Virus genome (UHGV): UHGV-0374065
Direction: 5' to 3' (one strand)
From: a virus
DNA length: 47,617 nt
In this document: positions 5,103-45,127 of the stretch, in pieces
How positions within the stretch are numbered: the stretch's first letter is position 1
Layout: each line of letters opens with the position of its first letter
Translations under genes and position numbers: made by a program
The notes under the pieces: generated by a model
The model's input: the letters and a program-made list of their open reading frames with translations, nothing else
What the model was told of the DNA's origin: nothing
Database searches by the model: none

Positions 5103-8906
<3,804 letters not shown>

Positions 8907-40279: not shown

Positions 40280-40663
40280 ATGATGACCAGCAAAAGCATT
40301 GAGCAAGAGATTCAGGACAAAGGCAGTGAAGCGCCACGAGTAACCGGGCAACACATTGAAGGAATCATTGTCAGCGAGCACTACTTTACGGGCTATGATG
40401 GCATTGGTGGAGATGGTGCGTGGGCAAAATACAAGTCAGCACTTGACTTGCGTTCGAGCCATGAATCATTAAAACTTATCACATTCTGCGTATTGGTGTT
40501 GAAAAACGGATTCACCGTGACCGGAGAAAGCGCCTGCGCCAGTCCAGAGAATTTCGATGCTGAAATTGGTCGCAAGATTGCCAGGGAGAATGCGGTAAAT
40601 AAAATCTGGATGCTTGAGGGTTATCTCCTTAAGCAAAATCTTTCGGAGGTAAATAATGGCTAA
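40280..40663 (+). CDS. Gp49-like protein (Phage_gp49_66 family)
   Basis: LITFCVLVLKNGFTVTGESACASPENFDAEIGRKIARENAVNKIWMLEGYLL. Confidence 0.6.
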   Translation: MMTSKSIEQEIQDKGSEAPRVTGQHIEGIIVSEHYFTGYDGIGGDGAWAKYKSALDLRSSHESLKLITFCVLVLKNGFTVTGESACASPENFDAEIGRKIARENAVNKIWMLEGYLLKQNLSEVNNG

Positions 40664-41715: not shown

Positions 41716-41742
41716 AACAAAGCCCCGTGAAGGGGCTTTGAT
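41716..41742. terminator. Bidirectional rho-independent terminator
   Basis: AAAGCCCC-GTGA-AGGGGCTTTG. Confidence 0.7.
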
Positions 41743-41744
41743 TG

Positions 41745-42221
41745 CTACAGACGCATAGGCATAACAACAATCTTCGCAGTCTCGCCAGATGGCGCACTAA
41801 GACAGCAAACTGCGGCATTTGTATTTCCATTCAGTTCAAATTTGACACCACAGAATTTAGGATTAAACAGCTTCGCCACTTTCTCAATATCAACAAGGTA
41901 TCCAGCATTGAAGCCTATTTCCTCTGCTGCTTTCGTTTCCCTTGGTATAACGTGATCAATATCAGGGAATCGACCATCAATCTCTTCGCAGATACCAGCA
42001 CCAACCATTGTGTCCATATGGCCGAAATGATAAGTAACGATTCCAGATTTTGTATCGATGATCGCATGGTTATATTTCTTTTTCGGAGACTTGCTCACCT
42101 TTACAATCACACTTTCTGTCAGCTTATTGTCATGGCTGCCGCCAATAAATGCGCGATGACCGTCAGTTGAGGCAATACGACCATCAGGCATGAAGCAGAT
42201 GCCATTCAGGTAATACCGCAC
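41745..42221 (-). CDS. Truncated DNA polymerase III beta sliding-clamp (DnaN) homologue: domain II plus the C-terminal strands of domain III, GTG start, possibly a pseudogene
   Basis: NDVRYYLNGI, TDGHRAF, IDGRFPDIDHVIP, EIGFNAGYLVDI and terminal IVVMPMRL mirror E. coli DnaN residues about 150-366 (…DVRYYLNGM…DGHRLA…VDGRFPDYRRVLP…EIGFNVSYVLDV…YVVMPMRL). An in-frame TAA lies 9 codons upstream of the GTG. About 75 residues of domain III are absent. Confidence 0.6.
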   Translation of the reverse strand: MRYYLNGICFMPDGRIASTDGHRAFIGGSHDNKLTESVIVKVSKSPKKKYNHAIIDTKSGIVTYHFGHMDTMVGAGICEEIDGRFPDIDHVIPRETKAAEEIGFNAGYLVDIEKVAKLFNPKFCGVKFELNGNTNAAVCCLSAPSGETAKIVVMPMRL

Positions 42222-42280
42222 ATCATTGCGAGCCTGAAATATTAATGCTTATTCAAGTAATAGTTTGCTTGTTTTTAGTT

Positions 42281-42457
42281 TCATTTGATCACCTCAAATT
42301 TATATTTAGGCTCAGGCCATGTCGCGGTTCCGTCTTCCCATCGGACATATACTGGTTGAATTTTGTCCTCAATATCTACCTTCTCAACTACGCAAGGTAG
42401 CGGGTCATATTCTGGAATGATTATCTTATCTCCAACTTTTAAATCAGTTAATTCCAT
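42281..42457 (-). CDS. Small hypothetical protein (58 aa)
   Basis: MELTDLKVGDKIIIPEYDPLPCVVEK...; TGATG coupling with upstream gene. Confidence 0.35.
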   Translation of the reverse strand: MELTDLKVGDKIIIPEYDPLPCVVEKVDIEDKIQPVYVRWEDGTATWPEPKYKFEVIK

Positions 42458-42630
42458 CACTTCACCTTAATCATGTGTTGTTTTGCAACCTTCAGGCATT
42501 CTTCAAAAATGCCGCCCTTCTTAGCGCTCTGATTGCGCTTGTAATACTGAATTGCCACATCAATTGCCATCTGGTCGATGTCAGGCAACTTGGTGCGAAG
42601 TTGTTTTTCAATGAATTGTTCTGGTGTCAT
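42457..42630 (-). CDS. Small hypothetical protein (57 aa)
   Basis: MTPEQFIEKQLRTKLPDIDQMAIDVAIQYYKRNQ...; TAATG coupling with the methyltransferase stop. Confidence 0.35.
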   Translation of the reverse strand: MTPEQFIEKQLRTKLPDIDQMAIDVAIQYYKRNQSAKKGGIFEECLKVAKQHMIKVK

Positions 42631-43430
42631 TAAACGGACCTCATGAATGCTTTAATGAATTCTGCTGCGACTTGTGGAACTATGGCATTACCATAACCGC
42701 GCAATCGTCCCACTCTTGCGGATACCCCATGAGTTGCCTCGCAAAATCCGCCTGGTATGACTCTAGTTTCCTTATCTGCTCCATGGTTGGGTTTCCATGA
42801 ATCCCATAAACATGAAGCCACATCTGGCGATAAAGAGTATCGTTCCTGAATTTCCCGTCCTTTCTGTAAAATGACTTGCTGAGATTCCCGTAATCCTTCC
42901 ATCCTCGCGCCGTTGGTGTCGCCCATCCTCGCGCCAAAGATGATTCTTTTCCTTTCCTGTGGAGAGCCGACGCTGCAAGCTGGCAATACTGACGCCCCGC
43001 AGGCGTAGCCTTTGTCTTCCAGGTTAAGGAATACAAAATCGAGCCAGTGCTTCCCAATTGCTGCTGCAACCTGCTCTCCAAACAGCAATTCAGGCTTGCA
43101 CTCTCTGATGAGCCTGAGAAATGCTGGGGCAAGGTGTCGATCGTCGTCAAATCCGAGAGACTTACCGGCAACGCTAAACGGCTGGCAAGGTGGTGATCCT
43201 GTCCAGAGTCGAGTGCTTTCTGGTATTCCTGCCAGCTGGAGTGCAAGGGGCCACCCTCCGATTCCGGCAAAGAAGTGACACTGTGTAAATCCTTCCAGGT
43301 CTGAAGGGGTGACTTCGGTGATTGATCGTTCATCGACATATCCGTAAGGAATTAGTTTATTGTTAATTAATTCACGCAGCCATGCCGCTGCGCCCTTGTC
43401 CCACTCATTGTAATAGTGGACCATCATCAC
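42630..43430 (-). CDS. DNA (cytosine-5)-methyltransferase, compact phage type
   Basis: Motif I FAGIGG, motif IV GSPPCQPFSVAGK, motif VI-like FGEQV, motif X GNAIVPQVA. Confidence 0.8.
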   Translation of the reverse strand: MMMVHYYNEWDKGAAAWLRELINNKLIPYGYVDERSITEVTPSDLEGFTQCHFFAGIGGWPLALQLAGIPESTRLWTGSPPCQPFSVAGKSLGFDDDRHLAPAFLRLIRECKPELLFGEQVAAAIGKHWLDFVFLNLEDKGYACGASVLPACSVGSPQERKRIIFGARMGDTNGARMEGLRESQQVILQKGREIQERYSLSPDVASCLWDSWKPNHGADKETRVIPGGFCEATHGVSARVGRLRGYGNAIVPQVAAEFIKAFMRSV

Positions 43431-44236
43431 ATCTTCTCCAGAATTGCCATCACCTCGTGAATATCAGCAACAGGAATCTTGATAAACTCCTCATTCTCTG
43501 CCACTACATGACCAGCAGGAAGAATAACGTGGTCAGCTGGCTTCAGTAACTCAATCAGTCGGTCTACTGGCTTAATCTTTTTCGACTTGAGCACTTTCGC
43601 CGTGACCTTGTCTTTGCCTTGTGCCTTCGCTTCTTCGACTGCCTCGTCGATAACTTTAACCGCATCATCGCCATGCTCGCGAGTTACTGCTACGGCATTT
43701 GCATAGCTGATTTGCCCTGCACTGATTCGCGCTTTTACTTCGGCTGGCACATCACCCAGTGACAGGTGCATCTGCACGTCAGAAACTGAGCGCCCTACCT
43801 TCTTGGCGATTTCCTCGTTGGTCCAGCCAAAACCCTTCAGTCGCGTGTAAGCCTTTGCGCGTTCAAACGGGTCAAGCTGCTTACCCTGACTGGACGACAC
43901 CATGAAGGCGATTTTATCTGCTTCGCCTCCTGTGAAATCCTTGCACTCAATACGAACAATTGGTGCGCCACGCTCAATGGCACGCAATGCGCCTAGATAG
44001 CGATACTGACCATCAAGAATGCGGATTCCCTTCTCATCAGGAATAACTGTTAATGCTGGTAATGGCTGACCTGATTCCCAGCACTGCGCGAAATACTCCA
44101 CATGCTGCTCGTCTGCTTCGCGGATGTTGTATCCCGGCTCCAGATAGATTTGCTCCACTGGCACGAGATAGGTTTTGTTAACAGCGATTCCGTTGCGCGT
44201 TTCTTTGTCTGAATAGATTTTGCTAAGTGTTTTCAT
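43427..44236 (-). CDS. ParB-like nuclease-domain protein
   Basis: ParB/Srx box GIRILDGQYRYLGALRA. The start was re-called at 44236 (MKTLSKIY); the track ORF begins at 44329. Confidence 0.6.
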   Translation of the reverse strand: MKTLSKIYSDKETRNGIAVNKTYLVPVEQIYLEPGYNIREADEQHVEYFAQCWESGQPLPALTVIPDEKGIRILDGQYRYLGALRAIERGAPIVRIECKDFTGGEADKIAFMVSSSQGKQLDPFERAKAYTRLKGFGWTNEEIAKKVGRSVSDVQMHLSLGDVPAEVKARISAGQISYANAVAVTREHGDDAVKVIDEAVEEAKAQGKDKVTAKVLKSKKIKPVDRLIELLKPADHVILPAGHVVAENEEFIKIPVADIHEVMAILEKM

Positions 44237-44237
44237 A

Positions 44238-44429
44238 TCATTCACCACTTTCTTCCAATAATTGCTCGTAATATGCGACGTACTCATTAGCAAGATGGTA
44301 CAGGCGCTCAGCAGACTTGCGTTCTGCATTACTTAAGTCACCAATAGACTCAATGTTGCCAATTACATCAACACAATCATTGAAGTCTTGCTCTGTATTA
44401 CGAAATCGACAGTAGGACATGTTTGCCAT
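44238..44429 (-). CDS. Hypothetical protein
   Basis: 63 aa. Confidence 0.4.
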   Translation of the reverse strand: MANMSYCRFRNTEQDFNDCVDVIGNIESIGDLSNAERKSAERLYHLANEYVAYYEQLLEESGE

Positions 44430-44431
44430 GA

Positions 44432-45061
44432 TTAATCCTCATCACCAGAATTAGCAATATCGTAAAACTGACCGTAGGTTATCTGCTTAAAGTTATCAGG
44501 TATCGTTACCTGTCCGTGACCTTCATCTTTTGTATTTGGCACAGCAAAAATCAAACAATCATCCTTTTTCGGGTGTTTGCCTCCATAAGTAGAAAGCATT
44601 GCAAAACCAAATCCGCGACCAGATTGCTCACCAATGCCGGTACGTGCGATGCCATAATGGTTAACAATGTAGTCCTTCCATACTGGCAATAACTTTAATT
44701 TCTCGTTTGCCTCGCGCATCACTGCGTCCAGCTTTTTGTTGTATTCACGACCATCCTTTGTGTTTCCTTTCCCACGAACAATAACCACGCGCTGACCTTC
44801 CCAAAAATCTTCACGTTTTATTGTTACAGGGCATGGAAATTCAAATTTATTGCTCCACGCAAAACTCTCAAGCAGGCCACCGCTAACAGCGCCCCAACTG
44901 CGCGTTGTGGTAAATGCGACAGCTCCAACCTTTTTCATTGCGTCACCGAAAATTTCATTGCGGCGATTCTTGATGTCATCGTATGCGTCGATTAGTTTCT
45001 TAACATCATCACCTTCAACCATGTAATAATCATAATGTTTTGCGTTACTACTCATCTTCAT
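44432..45061 (-). CDS. Hypothetical protein (209 aa), first gene of the ParB/methyltransferase operon
   Basis: Start re-called at MKMSSN (SD GAGGTG). Acidic C-terminus. No recognisable domain. Confidence 0.45.
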   Translation of the reverse strand: MKMSSNAKHYDYYMVEGDDVKKLIDAYDDIKNRRNEIFGDAMKKVGAVAFTTTRSWGAVSGGLLESFAWSNKFEFPCPVTIKREDFWEGQRVVIVRGKGNTKDGREYNKKLDAVMREANEKLKLLPVWKDYIVNHYGIARTGIGEQSGRGFGFAMLSTYGGKHPKKDDCLIFAVPNTKDEGHGQVTIPDNFKQITYGQFYDIANSGDED

Positions 45062-45075
45062 CACCTCTAACATTT

Positions 45076-45127
45076 ATTGTTGTTTCTACGTCACTAACTA
45101 TAAACGCCACATCAATCTACGTCAACA
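45076..45127. promoter_or_regulatory. Face-to-face divergent promoters with two operator-like boxes
   Basis: Plus strand has TTGTTG-N16-TATAAA (45076-45103). Minus strand has TTGACG-N17-TATAGT. Boxes TTTCTACGTCAC and CAATCTACGTCAAC. Confidence 0.55.

Follow-up and report, generated by a model that had tools for sequence, protein, structure and literature searches.

The 158-residue open reading frame at 41745..42221 (-) of the window (the whole stretch of viral DNA that was analysed, 47,617 nucleotides in length) is the tail part of a 179-codon phage 'mini beta-clamp' gene, which occupies 41745..42284 (-) and is interrupted at codon 12. Profile comparison and structure modelling show that the predicted full-length product has the fold of domain II and the C-terminal half of domain III of DnaN, the bacterial beta sliding clamp. 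As judged from its sequences, the family to which this mini-clamp belongs is ancient, functional and under purifying selection, and the short architecture is its native form. An earlier note on this DNA had described the same frame as an eroded piece of dnaN.

A nonsense codon hides the start of the gene

The 158-residue frame is present in the list of open reading frames, and its translation contains the segments DVRYYLNG, DGHR, DGRFPD, EIGFN..Y..D and VVMPMRL in the order in which they occur in DnaN; the colinearity that the earlier note had read from these hallmarks, from DVRYYLNG through VVMPMRL, was thus borne out. The full frame consists of 179 codons followed by a TAA stop at 41745-41747, and is colinear with the gene of phage HC6 (179 codons) and that of phage Bas78 (178 codons), whose proteins both start with MKLKISKLLLESALIFQARNDVRYYLNG. 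In a tblastn comparison the HC6 protein covered residues 1-179 of the window copy at 97.8% identity, with one stop. This stop is an in-frame TAA (ochre) at codon 12, positions 42249..42251 (-); in the DNA alignment the corresponding codon is TCA (Ser) in HC6 and Bas78, so that a single C-to-A change separates the two states.

The authentic ATG start lies at 42282..42284 (-), where it overlaps by 4 nt (ATGA) with the TGA stop of the upstream 59-residue frame, and its position is that of the annotated starts in HC6 and Bas78. A Shine-Dalgarno sequence, GAGGTG, can be read from the sequence at 42290..42295 (-), 5 nt upstream of the ATG. The GTG at 42219..42221 (-), which is listed as the start of the 158-residue frame, corresponds to Val22 of the full protein and has no comparable Shine-Dalgarno sequence ahead of it: this 'start' is an artefact of the nonsense mutation. 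A product initiated there would be without strand 1 and helix 1 of domain II (residues 3-7 and 8-17 in the AF2 model). The similarity to DnaN had been proposed to continue upstream of the GTG as far as the in-frame TAA; the upstream extension is real, but it runs past the TAA to the ATG.

The exact 158-residue sequence is recorded once, on a 47,627-bp Logan contig, and every other listed member of its 90% identity cluster is 179-180 residues long. Apart from the stop, the window and HC6 genes differ by three amino acids and by no synonymous change. When 15 HC6 genes were compared with the window over 8.5 kb, a stop was found in the mini-clamp gene only and frameshifts in none. Because the 14 neighbouring genes are intact and indel-free relative to HC6, sloppy assembly is an unlikely source of the TAA, though a lone base-call error could still produce it. 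A search of window positions 1-47617 for tRNA genes found none, and hence no suppressor tRNA for the TAA; as a side observation, the relative swi2 has a tRNA-Met, and KlebP_265 has been reported with three tRNAs.

On this sequence record the nonsense codon is very recent and private to the window contig. Since codon 12 is a stop, the window copy is probably null or strongly hypomorphic, and in place of the intact frame of phrog_3007, the PHROG that it matches, it has TAA. The nonsense allele suggests that mini-clamp function is accessory, not essential, and dispensable under some conditions.

Profile searches place the protein among beta clamps

In PHROGs, the 158-residue frame matched phrog_3007 (E 1.2e-49) at positions 23-186 of a 190-position profile, and the 22 profile positions that it leaves unmatched are encoded upstream of the TAA; the complete gene, at about 180 residues, therefore gives a full-length profile match. 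The frame also matched phrog_947, 'DNA polymerase processivity factor' (E 4.6e-9), and a profile built from the family matched beta clamps in the PDB (E 3e-15) and E. coli DnaN (95.7 bits). These scores uphold the clamp homology that had been claimed for the 158-residue frame. Mini-clamp scores did not reach the cut-offs of the curated DnaN models: in Pfam the 158-residue frame gave DNA_pol3_beta_3 only, at E 0.012 and below cut-off (PF02768 score 15.8, cut-off 27), and the TIGR00663 score was 31.4 bits against a cut-off of 137.65, a figure that applies to the first family member only. TIGR00663 was matched by 63 of 74 family members, with a best E of 1.2e-20. Pfam alone, with its sub-threshold match, therefore misses the clamp homology, and a search with 74 relatives found no dedicated Pfam or NCBIfam model for short phage beta-like proteins.

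The label carried by phrog_3007, and by many RefSeq records, is 'RusA-like Holliday junction resolvase'; the label alone speaks for this identity, to which we give next to no credence, since a Pfam search of the frame and its 74 relatives gave no match to PF05866 (RusA), a fold search with the mini-clamp model returned clamps only, lambdoid contexts have a genuine RusA gene (PF05866) of their own just upstream, and Bcep781 has its own RusA, gp22. Profile and fold together refute the resolvase assignment, and the RusA label has probably spread by adjacency.

The name is found on, for example, NC_054649 gp73 and NC_004333 gp15, and is a systematic misannotation that extends even to genomes with a separate true RusA, as with gp22 of Bcep781. 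Bcep781 gp15 is annotated as 'DNA Pol III b subunit fragment', and the resemblance to the clamp was therefore already known at the level of annotation. A literature search yielded no functional work on these short beta-like proteins of phages; the family is known through annotation alone, much of it wrong. What is corrected here is a widespread misannotation, as RusA-like resolvase or as DNA polymerase III beta subunit, in hundreds of phage genomes.

Domain II is joined to half of domain III

To define the domain boundaries, the family profile was aligned to an E. coli DnaN sequence that had been checked for length and pocket positions and that agrees with the PDB alignment. Profile positions 7-170 aligned with DnaN 136-303, and positions 118-178 aligned again with 313-366. 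Residues 1-113 of the mini-clamp (41946..42284, minus strand) are the equivalent of DnaN domain II, E. coli about 130-250 (136-250 in the hmmsearch alignment), and hold the DVRYYLNG loop, TDGHR and DGRFPD. Residues 114-179 (41748..41945, minus strand) form a linker and one beta-alpha-beta3 unit, equivalent to E. coli 313-366 in the C-terminal half of domain III, and hold EIGFN..Y and VVMPMRL. A sub-profile of this last unit scored 30-34 bits against domain IIIb, the C-terminal half, 5-8 bits against IIIa, the first half, and 0 or less against the other half-domains. In Foldseek, alignments that skipped about 85 target columns reached a TM score of 0.63, compared with 0.40 for contiguous ones. 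The alignment to IIIb contains a 5-residue extra loop, NPKF, similar to the SNEKF loop found in IIIa, the half that is absent. A simple unequal-crossover origin of this third unit was considered and set aside, the unit being IIIb-like at both ends and IIIa-like in the middle loop only.

An AF2 model of the mini-clamp, computed from a diverse alignment of 74 sequences, had a pLDDT of 96.2 and a pTM of 0.90; a run with a shallow alignment (30 sequences, at least 70% identity) had given a pLDDT of 51.8 and was discarded. Structure prediction against the beta clamp had been put forward as a check on the homology, and the confident model and the clamps-only fold search come out in its favour. The model shows three repeat units with two long helices only. 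Residues 65-73, which take the place of the second, channel-lining helix of domain II, are predicted as a short loop with no helix, and in the monomer model strand 1 of the last unit is barely formed.

The mini-clamp is without domain I (about 130 N-terminal residues) and without the first half of domain III (about 60 residues, about E. coli 253-312). The earlier note was right that domain I is gone and that domain III carries an internal deletion, but it had put the N-terminal loss at roughly 150 residues including part of domain II, which is in fact complete in extent, and the internal one at about 75. The residues reported to form the dimer interface of beta are I78, F106, R103, I272, L273, E298 and E304 (PMC11139829); the first three lie in domain I and the other four in IIIa, and all are absent. 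Thus, in place of the three clamp domains of a chain of about 366 residues, the mini-clamp has 179 residues equivalent to DnaN 136-250 and 313-366 only, keeps the beta-alpha-beta3 clamp fold, and has no head-to-tail dimer interface. The statement that the protein could not form a complete ring subunit on its own therefore holds, both sides of the interface having gone with domain I and IIIa. The family also differs in charge, with a median pI of 8.4 compared with 5.25 for E. coli DnaN.

Most of the best-conserved positions belong to the predicted partner-binding pocket

A review (PMC11139829) lists 18 residues, in two subsites, by which beta binds clamp-binding motifs (CBMs). In the 74-member alignment, 14 columns were conserved to at least 90%, and ten of these are pocket residues (Fisher p 5e-9): R152, L155, T172, G174, H175, P242, Y323, M362, P363 and R365. 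The other four columns (D150, Y154, G157 and G239) lie within the same loops as pocket residues, and N320, V247, R246 and V360 are conservatively kept in the family. Both subsites, I and II, are recognizable at the level of sequence, and the window copy has the E. coli residue at 15 of the 18 positions (all but L177A, R246H and V344T), in agreement with the earlier claim that the partner-binding cleft is retained. Pocket residues are the most conserved ones in DnaN generally, and profile searches select for them; the enrichment may therefore derive in part from fold constraints and ascertainment.

The short form is widespread and under purifying selection

At 90% identity, the matches of a protein search fell into 407 clusters, most of which come from contigs of about 47 kb, and all but one of the matches listed were 171-193 residues long. 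An exhaustive profile search of 1.84 billion representatives (50% identity) gave 4040 matches at E<=1e-3, of which 488 reached E<=1e-10; among the best 150, nearly all were 170-210 residues long and aligned end to end, and the first full-length DnaN came only at E 2.6e-15. The length of about 180 residues is kept down to about 27% identity across the family. By tblastn the gene was found in 303 phage records from many genera, including Swiduovirus-like phages of Escherichia, Salmonella and Klebsiella, Dhillonvirus, Bcep781 (Naesvirus), 60-kb Vibrio phages, and phages of Hafnia, Pantoea, Proteus, Acinetobacter, Edwardsiella and Pseudomonas. In BFVD, many viral proteins of 180-210 residues share the mini-clamp fold (TM 0.8-0.89).

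Among IMG/VR relatives the frame was intact in 52 of 52, and over 514 pairs the dN/dS ratio (Nei-Gojobori) was 0.10 at the median and never exceeded 0.25. Identity to any chromosomal DnaN was at most 34%; of 80 loci in representative bacterial genomes, 77 proved to be full-length dnaN, with 25-34% identity, the pattern used being one that also matches host dnaN. The conserved length, the 52 intact frames and the dN/dS of 0.10 argue that the family is not eroding host DNA. The reading of the gene as a decaying, functionless remnant of captured host dnaN, which was one of the options offered with the label 'eroded', could draw on the premature stop at codon 12 of the window copy and on occasional truncated, fused or internally deleted alleles in metagenomes. 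For the family it is effectively refuted, and we consider it barely credible: in addition to the selection, intactness, length and host-identity data and the 407 clusters, the fold is predicted with confidence, and beyond the stop the window copy differs from HC6 by those three amino acids without a synonymous change. The survey of related phages with dN/dS that had been suggested as a check returned a conserved family, in which the sole decay is the codon-12 stop of the window.

Four metagenomic alleles (P0121, P0122, P0136 and P0057) are truncated, fused or internally deleted. In P0136 (142 residues) the N-terminus of the first gene of the operon described below (MSSNAKHYDYYMVEG...) is fused to the C-terminal third of the mini-clamp, equivalent to window 44432-45073 joined to 41745-about 42000; this implies that the whole ParB-methyltransferase segment was lost. 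P0122 (110 residues) has an internal deletion between the two DGR motifs. From P0136 and P0122 it follows that broken mini-clamp alleles circulate, at low frequency.

The gene closes an antisense operon within the head-gene block

The window is the genome of a Swiduovirus-like siphovirus, a placement made via the taxonomy of the relative swi2; the nearest records are the E. coli phages HC6, 6947 and HC8A, at 97.7% nucleotide identity. The mini-clamp is the last gene of a leftward operon of seven genes, which lies antisense inside the head-gene block. Upstream of the operon is a putative sigma-70-like promoter, TTGACG-17-TATAGT, at 45097..45125 (-), recognized solely by its match to the consensus at 10 of 12 positions. 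Directly after the mini-clamp stop, an intrinsic-terminator-like hairpin with a T run at 41718..41740 (-) (9-bp stem, 6 GC) is, by its sequence, the end of the operon. The six frames ahead of the mini-clamp span 42281..45073 (-) and have the identical order in HC6. The first encodes a 213-residue protein (44432-45073, minus strand; phrog_2260 and phrog_22326), conserved in HC6, for which Pfam and PADLOC gave no match; nor was any kinship found with Nmad5, the neighbour of the mini-clamp in Dhillonvirus. A ParB-like HTH protein (43427-44329, minus strand), a C5 cytosine methyltransferase (42630-43430, minus strand) and three small frames of 63, 57 and 59 residues, also within 42281..45073 (-), make up the remainder, so that the earlier description of a ParB/methyltransferase operon is correct. 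The methyltransferase is short (266 residues), and its match to the Pfam DNA_methylase model is confined to positions 58-165 out of 324; the usual N-terminal motif or target-recognition region may be missing, or the protein may have diverged strongly.

In three unrelated groups, namely the Swiduovirus-like phage of the window, Dhillonvirus and the Burkholderia myovirus Bcep781, the mini-clamp is antisense and embedded among head genes; the islands span 41745-45125 (-) in the window, 5176-6510 in the Dhillonvirus locus L004 and 5998-6579 in the Bcep781 locus L005. Such an antisense island may limit expression to the time before late transcription. In the window, a 127-residue gene of the Phage_gp49_66 family (PF13876, E 3e-33) at 40280-40663 (+) separates the major capsid gene from the head gene that follows. 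HC6 has no such gene at this position, where the gap is 42 nt, and the two close relatives therefore differ by an insertion or deletion.

The replication and recombination genes of the window phage are those for SSB, a Sak4-like protein, an exonuclease, two helicases and a primase; in agreement with the earlier note, no DNA polymerase gene was found in it. The relative KlebP_265 has likewise been reported to be without a DNA polymerase (PMC11769527). The earlier note had tied the clamp-derived protein to this missing polymerase; however, Dhillonvirus and Bcep781 carry the mini-clamp and a PolA in the same phage, and compensation for a missing polymerase was dismissed as a rule for the family. 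The real genes of the window phage contain no canonical CBM, and neither does the PolA of Dhillonvirus or Bcep781.

Elsewhere, the mini-clamp lies just after NinB and RusA in lambdoid nin regions, and, in another setting, near a primase-helicase. DNA-modification genes are neighbours in several lineages: Nmad5 in Dhillonvirus, a methylase in Bcep781 and N6/N4 methyltransferases in two metagenomic phages. The Dhillonvirus gene directly upstream of the mini-clamp encodes the Nmad5 protein (L004 5176-5940, plus strand; PF18757, E 1e-54). Dhillonvirus phages have been reported to evade the Tmn defence system through point mutations in nmad5, in a paper in which the neighbouring clamp-like gene is not mentioned (PMC11846954). 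The PADLOC defence-system models gave no match to the mini-clamp itself.

What the intact protein may do

Our leading, still tentative reading of the sequence data is that the intact protein would act as a soluble, non-ring pocket module that binds host clamp-binding motifs, either as a decoy or as the holder of a client. The two-subsite hydrophobic cleft for QLxLF-type motifs appears to be kept almost invariantly. The loss of domain I and IIIa has removed both sides of the head-to-tail ring interface, and one channel-lining helix is also gone, in the subfamily of the window; with the interface elements and the channel helix gone, the intact protein would therefore form no loaded sliding ring. 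Transcribed from the putative sigma-70-type promoter as the last gene of the ParB-like and C5 methyltransferase operon, the pocket module would bind the CBMs of host replication and repair proteins, for which the delta subunit, Hda, Pol II/IV/V, MutS/L and RecBCD are candidates. As a decoy, a role that the earlier note had suggested and with which the conserved pocket agrees, it would bind these clients in competition with host clamps loaded on DNA; alternatively, it might hold one client for the benefit of the phage. A monomeric variant of beta binds delta and DNA and does not tether Pol III (PMC11139829), and this engineered protein is a precedent for the behaviour of a pocket module. The absence of canonical CBMs from the genes of the window phage and from the PolA proteins fits targets in the host and points to no positive partner. 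Against a pocket sink, a general sink for CBMs would compete for the host Pol III that a phage without a polymerase needs; and against any single replication logic, some carriers of the family have no polymerase and others encode PolA.

The unpaired half-domain and the hybrid IIIb/IIIa features of the predicted last unit suggest a symmetric dimer. In a possible, if on balance unlikely, extension of this idea, the protein would be a clamp mimic that homodimerizes via its orphan half-domain, each unit providing a pocket wall (the IIIb role) and an NPKF loop (the IIIa role) of a symmetric pseudo-domain III. Its two open pockets would sequester host CBM proteins, with the delta unloader, Hda, translesion polymerases, MutL and RecBCD as candidate targets, and the host clamp hub would be reprogrammed for the phage.

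An adaptor rather than a sink is also conceivable but unlikely: via a second surface of the mini-clamp, or by direct DNA binding, a client would be brought to the DNA of the phage or to one of its enzymes, for instance the co-transcribed methyltransferase, the ParB-like protein or Nmad5. The conserved pocket accords with such a role, as do the mildly basic character of the family (median pI 8.4), the conservation of D150 and R152 in the DNA-contacting 148-152 loop, and the recurrence near the mini-clamp of DNA-modification genes (C5 methyltransferase with ParB-like protein, Nmad5, methylase, N6/N4 methyltransferases). However, no second surface is conspicuously conserved, all columns conserved to at least 90% being at or next to the pocket; the neighbouring genes vary between lineages; and methyltransferases are in any case common in phage early regions.

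It is improbable that the protein is a true processivity clamp of unusual stoichiometry, in which half-domains would pair between subunits, giving for instance a three-domain arc from a 2-fold dimer or a tetramer with 12 repeat units, and the assembly would encircle or cradle DNA in the manner of herpesvirus UL44/UL42-type non-ring or C-clamp factors. The IIIb-like third unit, with an NPKF loop like SNEKF of IIIa, could be one dual-role unit of a symmetric pair; strand 1 of this unit is barely formed in the monomer model, and some carriers have their own PolA. Set against these points, the canonical interface elements are absent and one channel helix is missing, the phage PolA proteins are without a CBM, and the window phage is without a polymerase. 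Still weaker is the case for a poison subunit that would co-assemble with host beta monomers and block ring closure or loading, which we regard as very improbable. Such co-assembly was suggested in the earlier note, and in its favour are the origin of the protein from a clamp and a structural comparison in which E. coli beta comes closest (34% identity); but both halves of the interface (domain I and the I272/L273 region) are missing, and nothing is left to pair canonically with domain I or III of the host. Co-assembly with the host clamp is thus disfavoured on sequence grounds, because both canonical interface elements are absent.

Relation to known clamps and clamp ligands

Compared with E. 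coli DnaN (PDB 2POL/1MMI), the mini-clamp is half the size, without domain I, IIIa and the sides of the dimer interface; it has one channel helix fewer, scores 31 bits with TIGR00663, far short of the cut-off of 138, and is mildly basic where DnaN is acidic. It resembles the engineered monomeric beta I272A/L273A in having an accessible pocket and in that ring closure is impossible, but that variant is a laboratory construct that keeps three domains, whereas the mini-clamp is a natural form of 1.5 domains. The beta* of E. coli (Skaliter, Paz-Elizur and Livneh, in 1996) is reportedly a UV-induced, internally started product of dnaN without domain I; its start, which we take to be near Met135, would align with Met1 of the phage protein (profile position 7 being DnaN 136). 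Both are N-terminally truncated clamps from which domain I is gone, but beta* keeps the whole of domain III and has reported clamp activity, whereas the mini-clamp is without half of domain III. The herpesvirus factors HSV UL42, CMV UL44, EBV BMRF1 and KSHV PF-8 are non-ring proteins that bind their own polymerase; they have two full PCNA-type domains, belong to a eukaryotic-virus lineage and have no sequence relation to the mini-clamp.

The beta clamp is a central hub of bacterial replication and repair, and an antibiotic target. If the pocket-module reading is true, a widespread, soluble, natural clamp reduced to its pocket would be a ready tool for trapping clamp-binding proteins and a minimal scaffold for screening pocket inhibitors, and it would represent a new strategy of host takeover or anti-repair, by mimicry of the clamp instead of mimicry of its ligands. 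Phage manipulation of the beta-clamp hub is what the mini-clamp would share with Gp168 of Twort and MuC of Mu, which act on the host clamp via its pocket, but these mimic clamp ligands, whereas the mini-clamp mimics the clamp itself. MuC carries a CBM (PMC12867686), and the complex of Gp168 with the clamp (7EVP) is among the fold-search matches of the mini-clamp.
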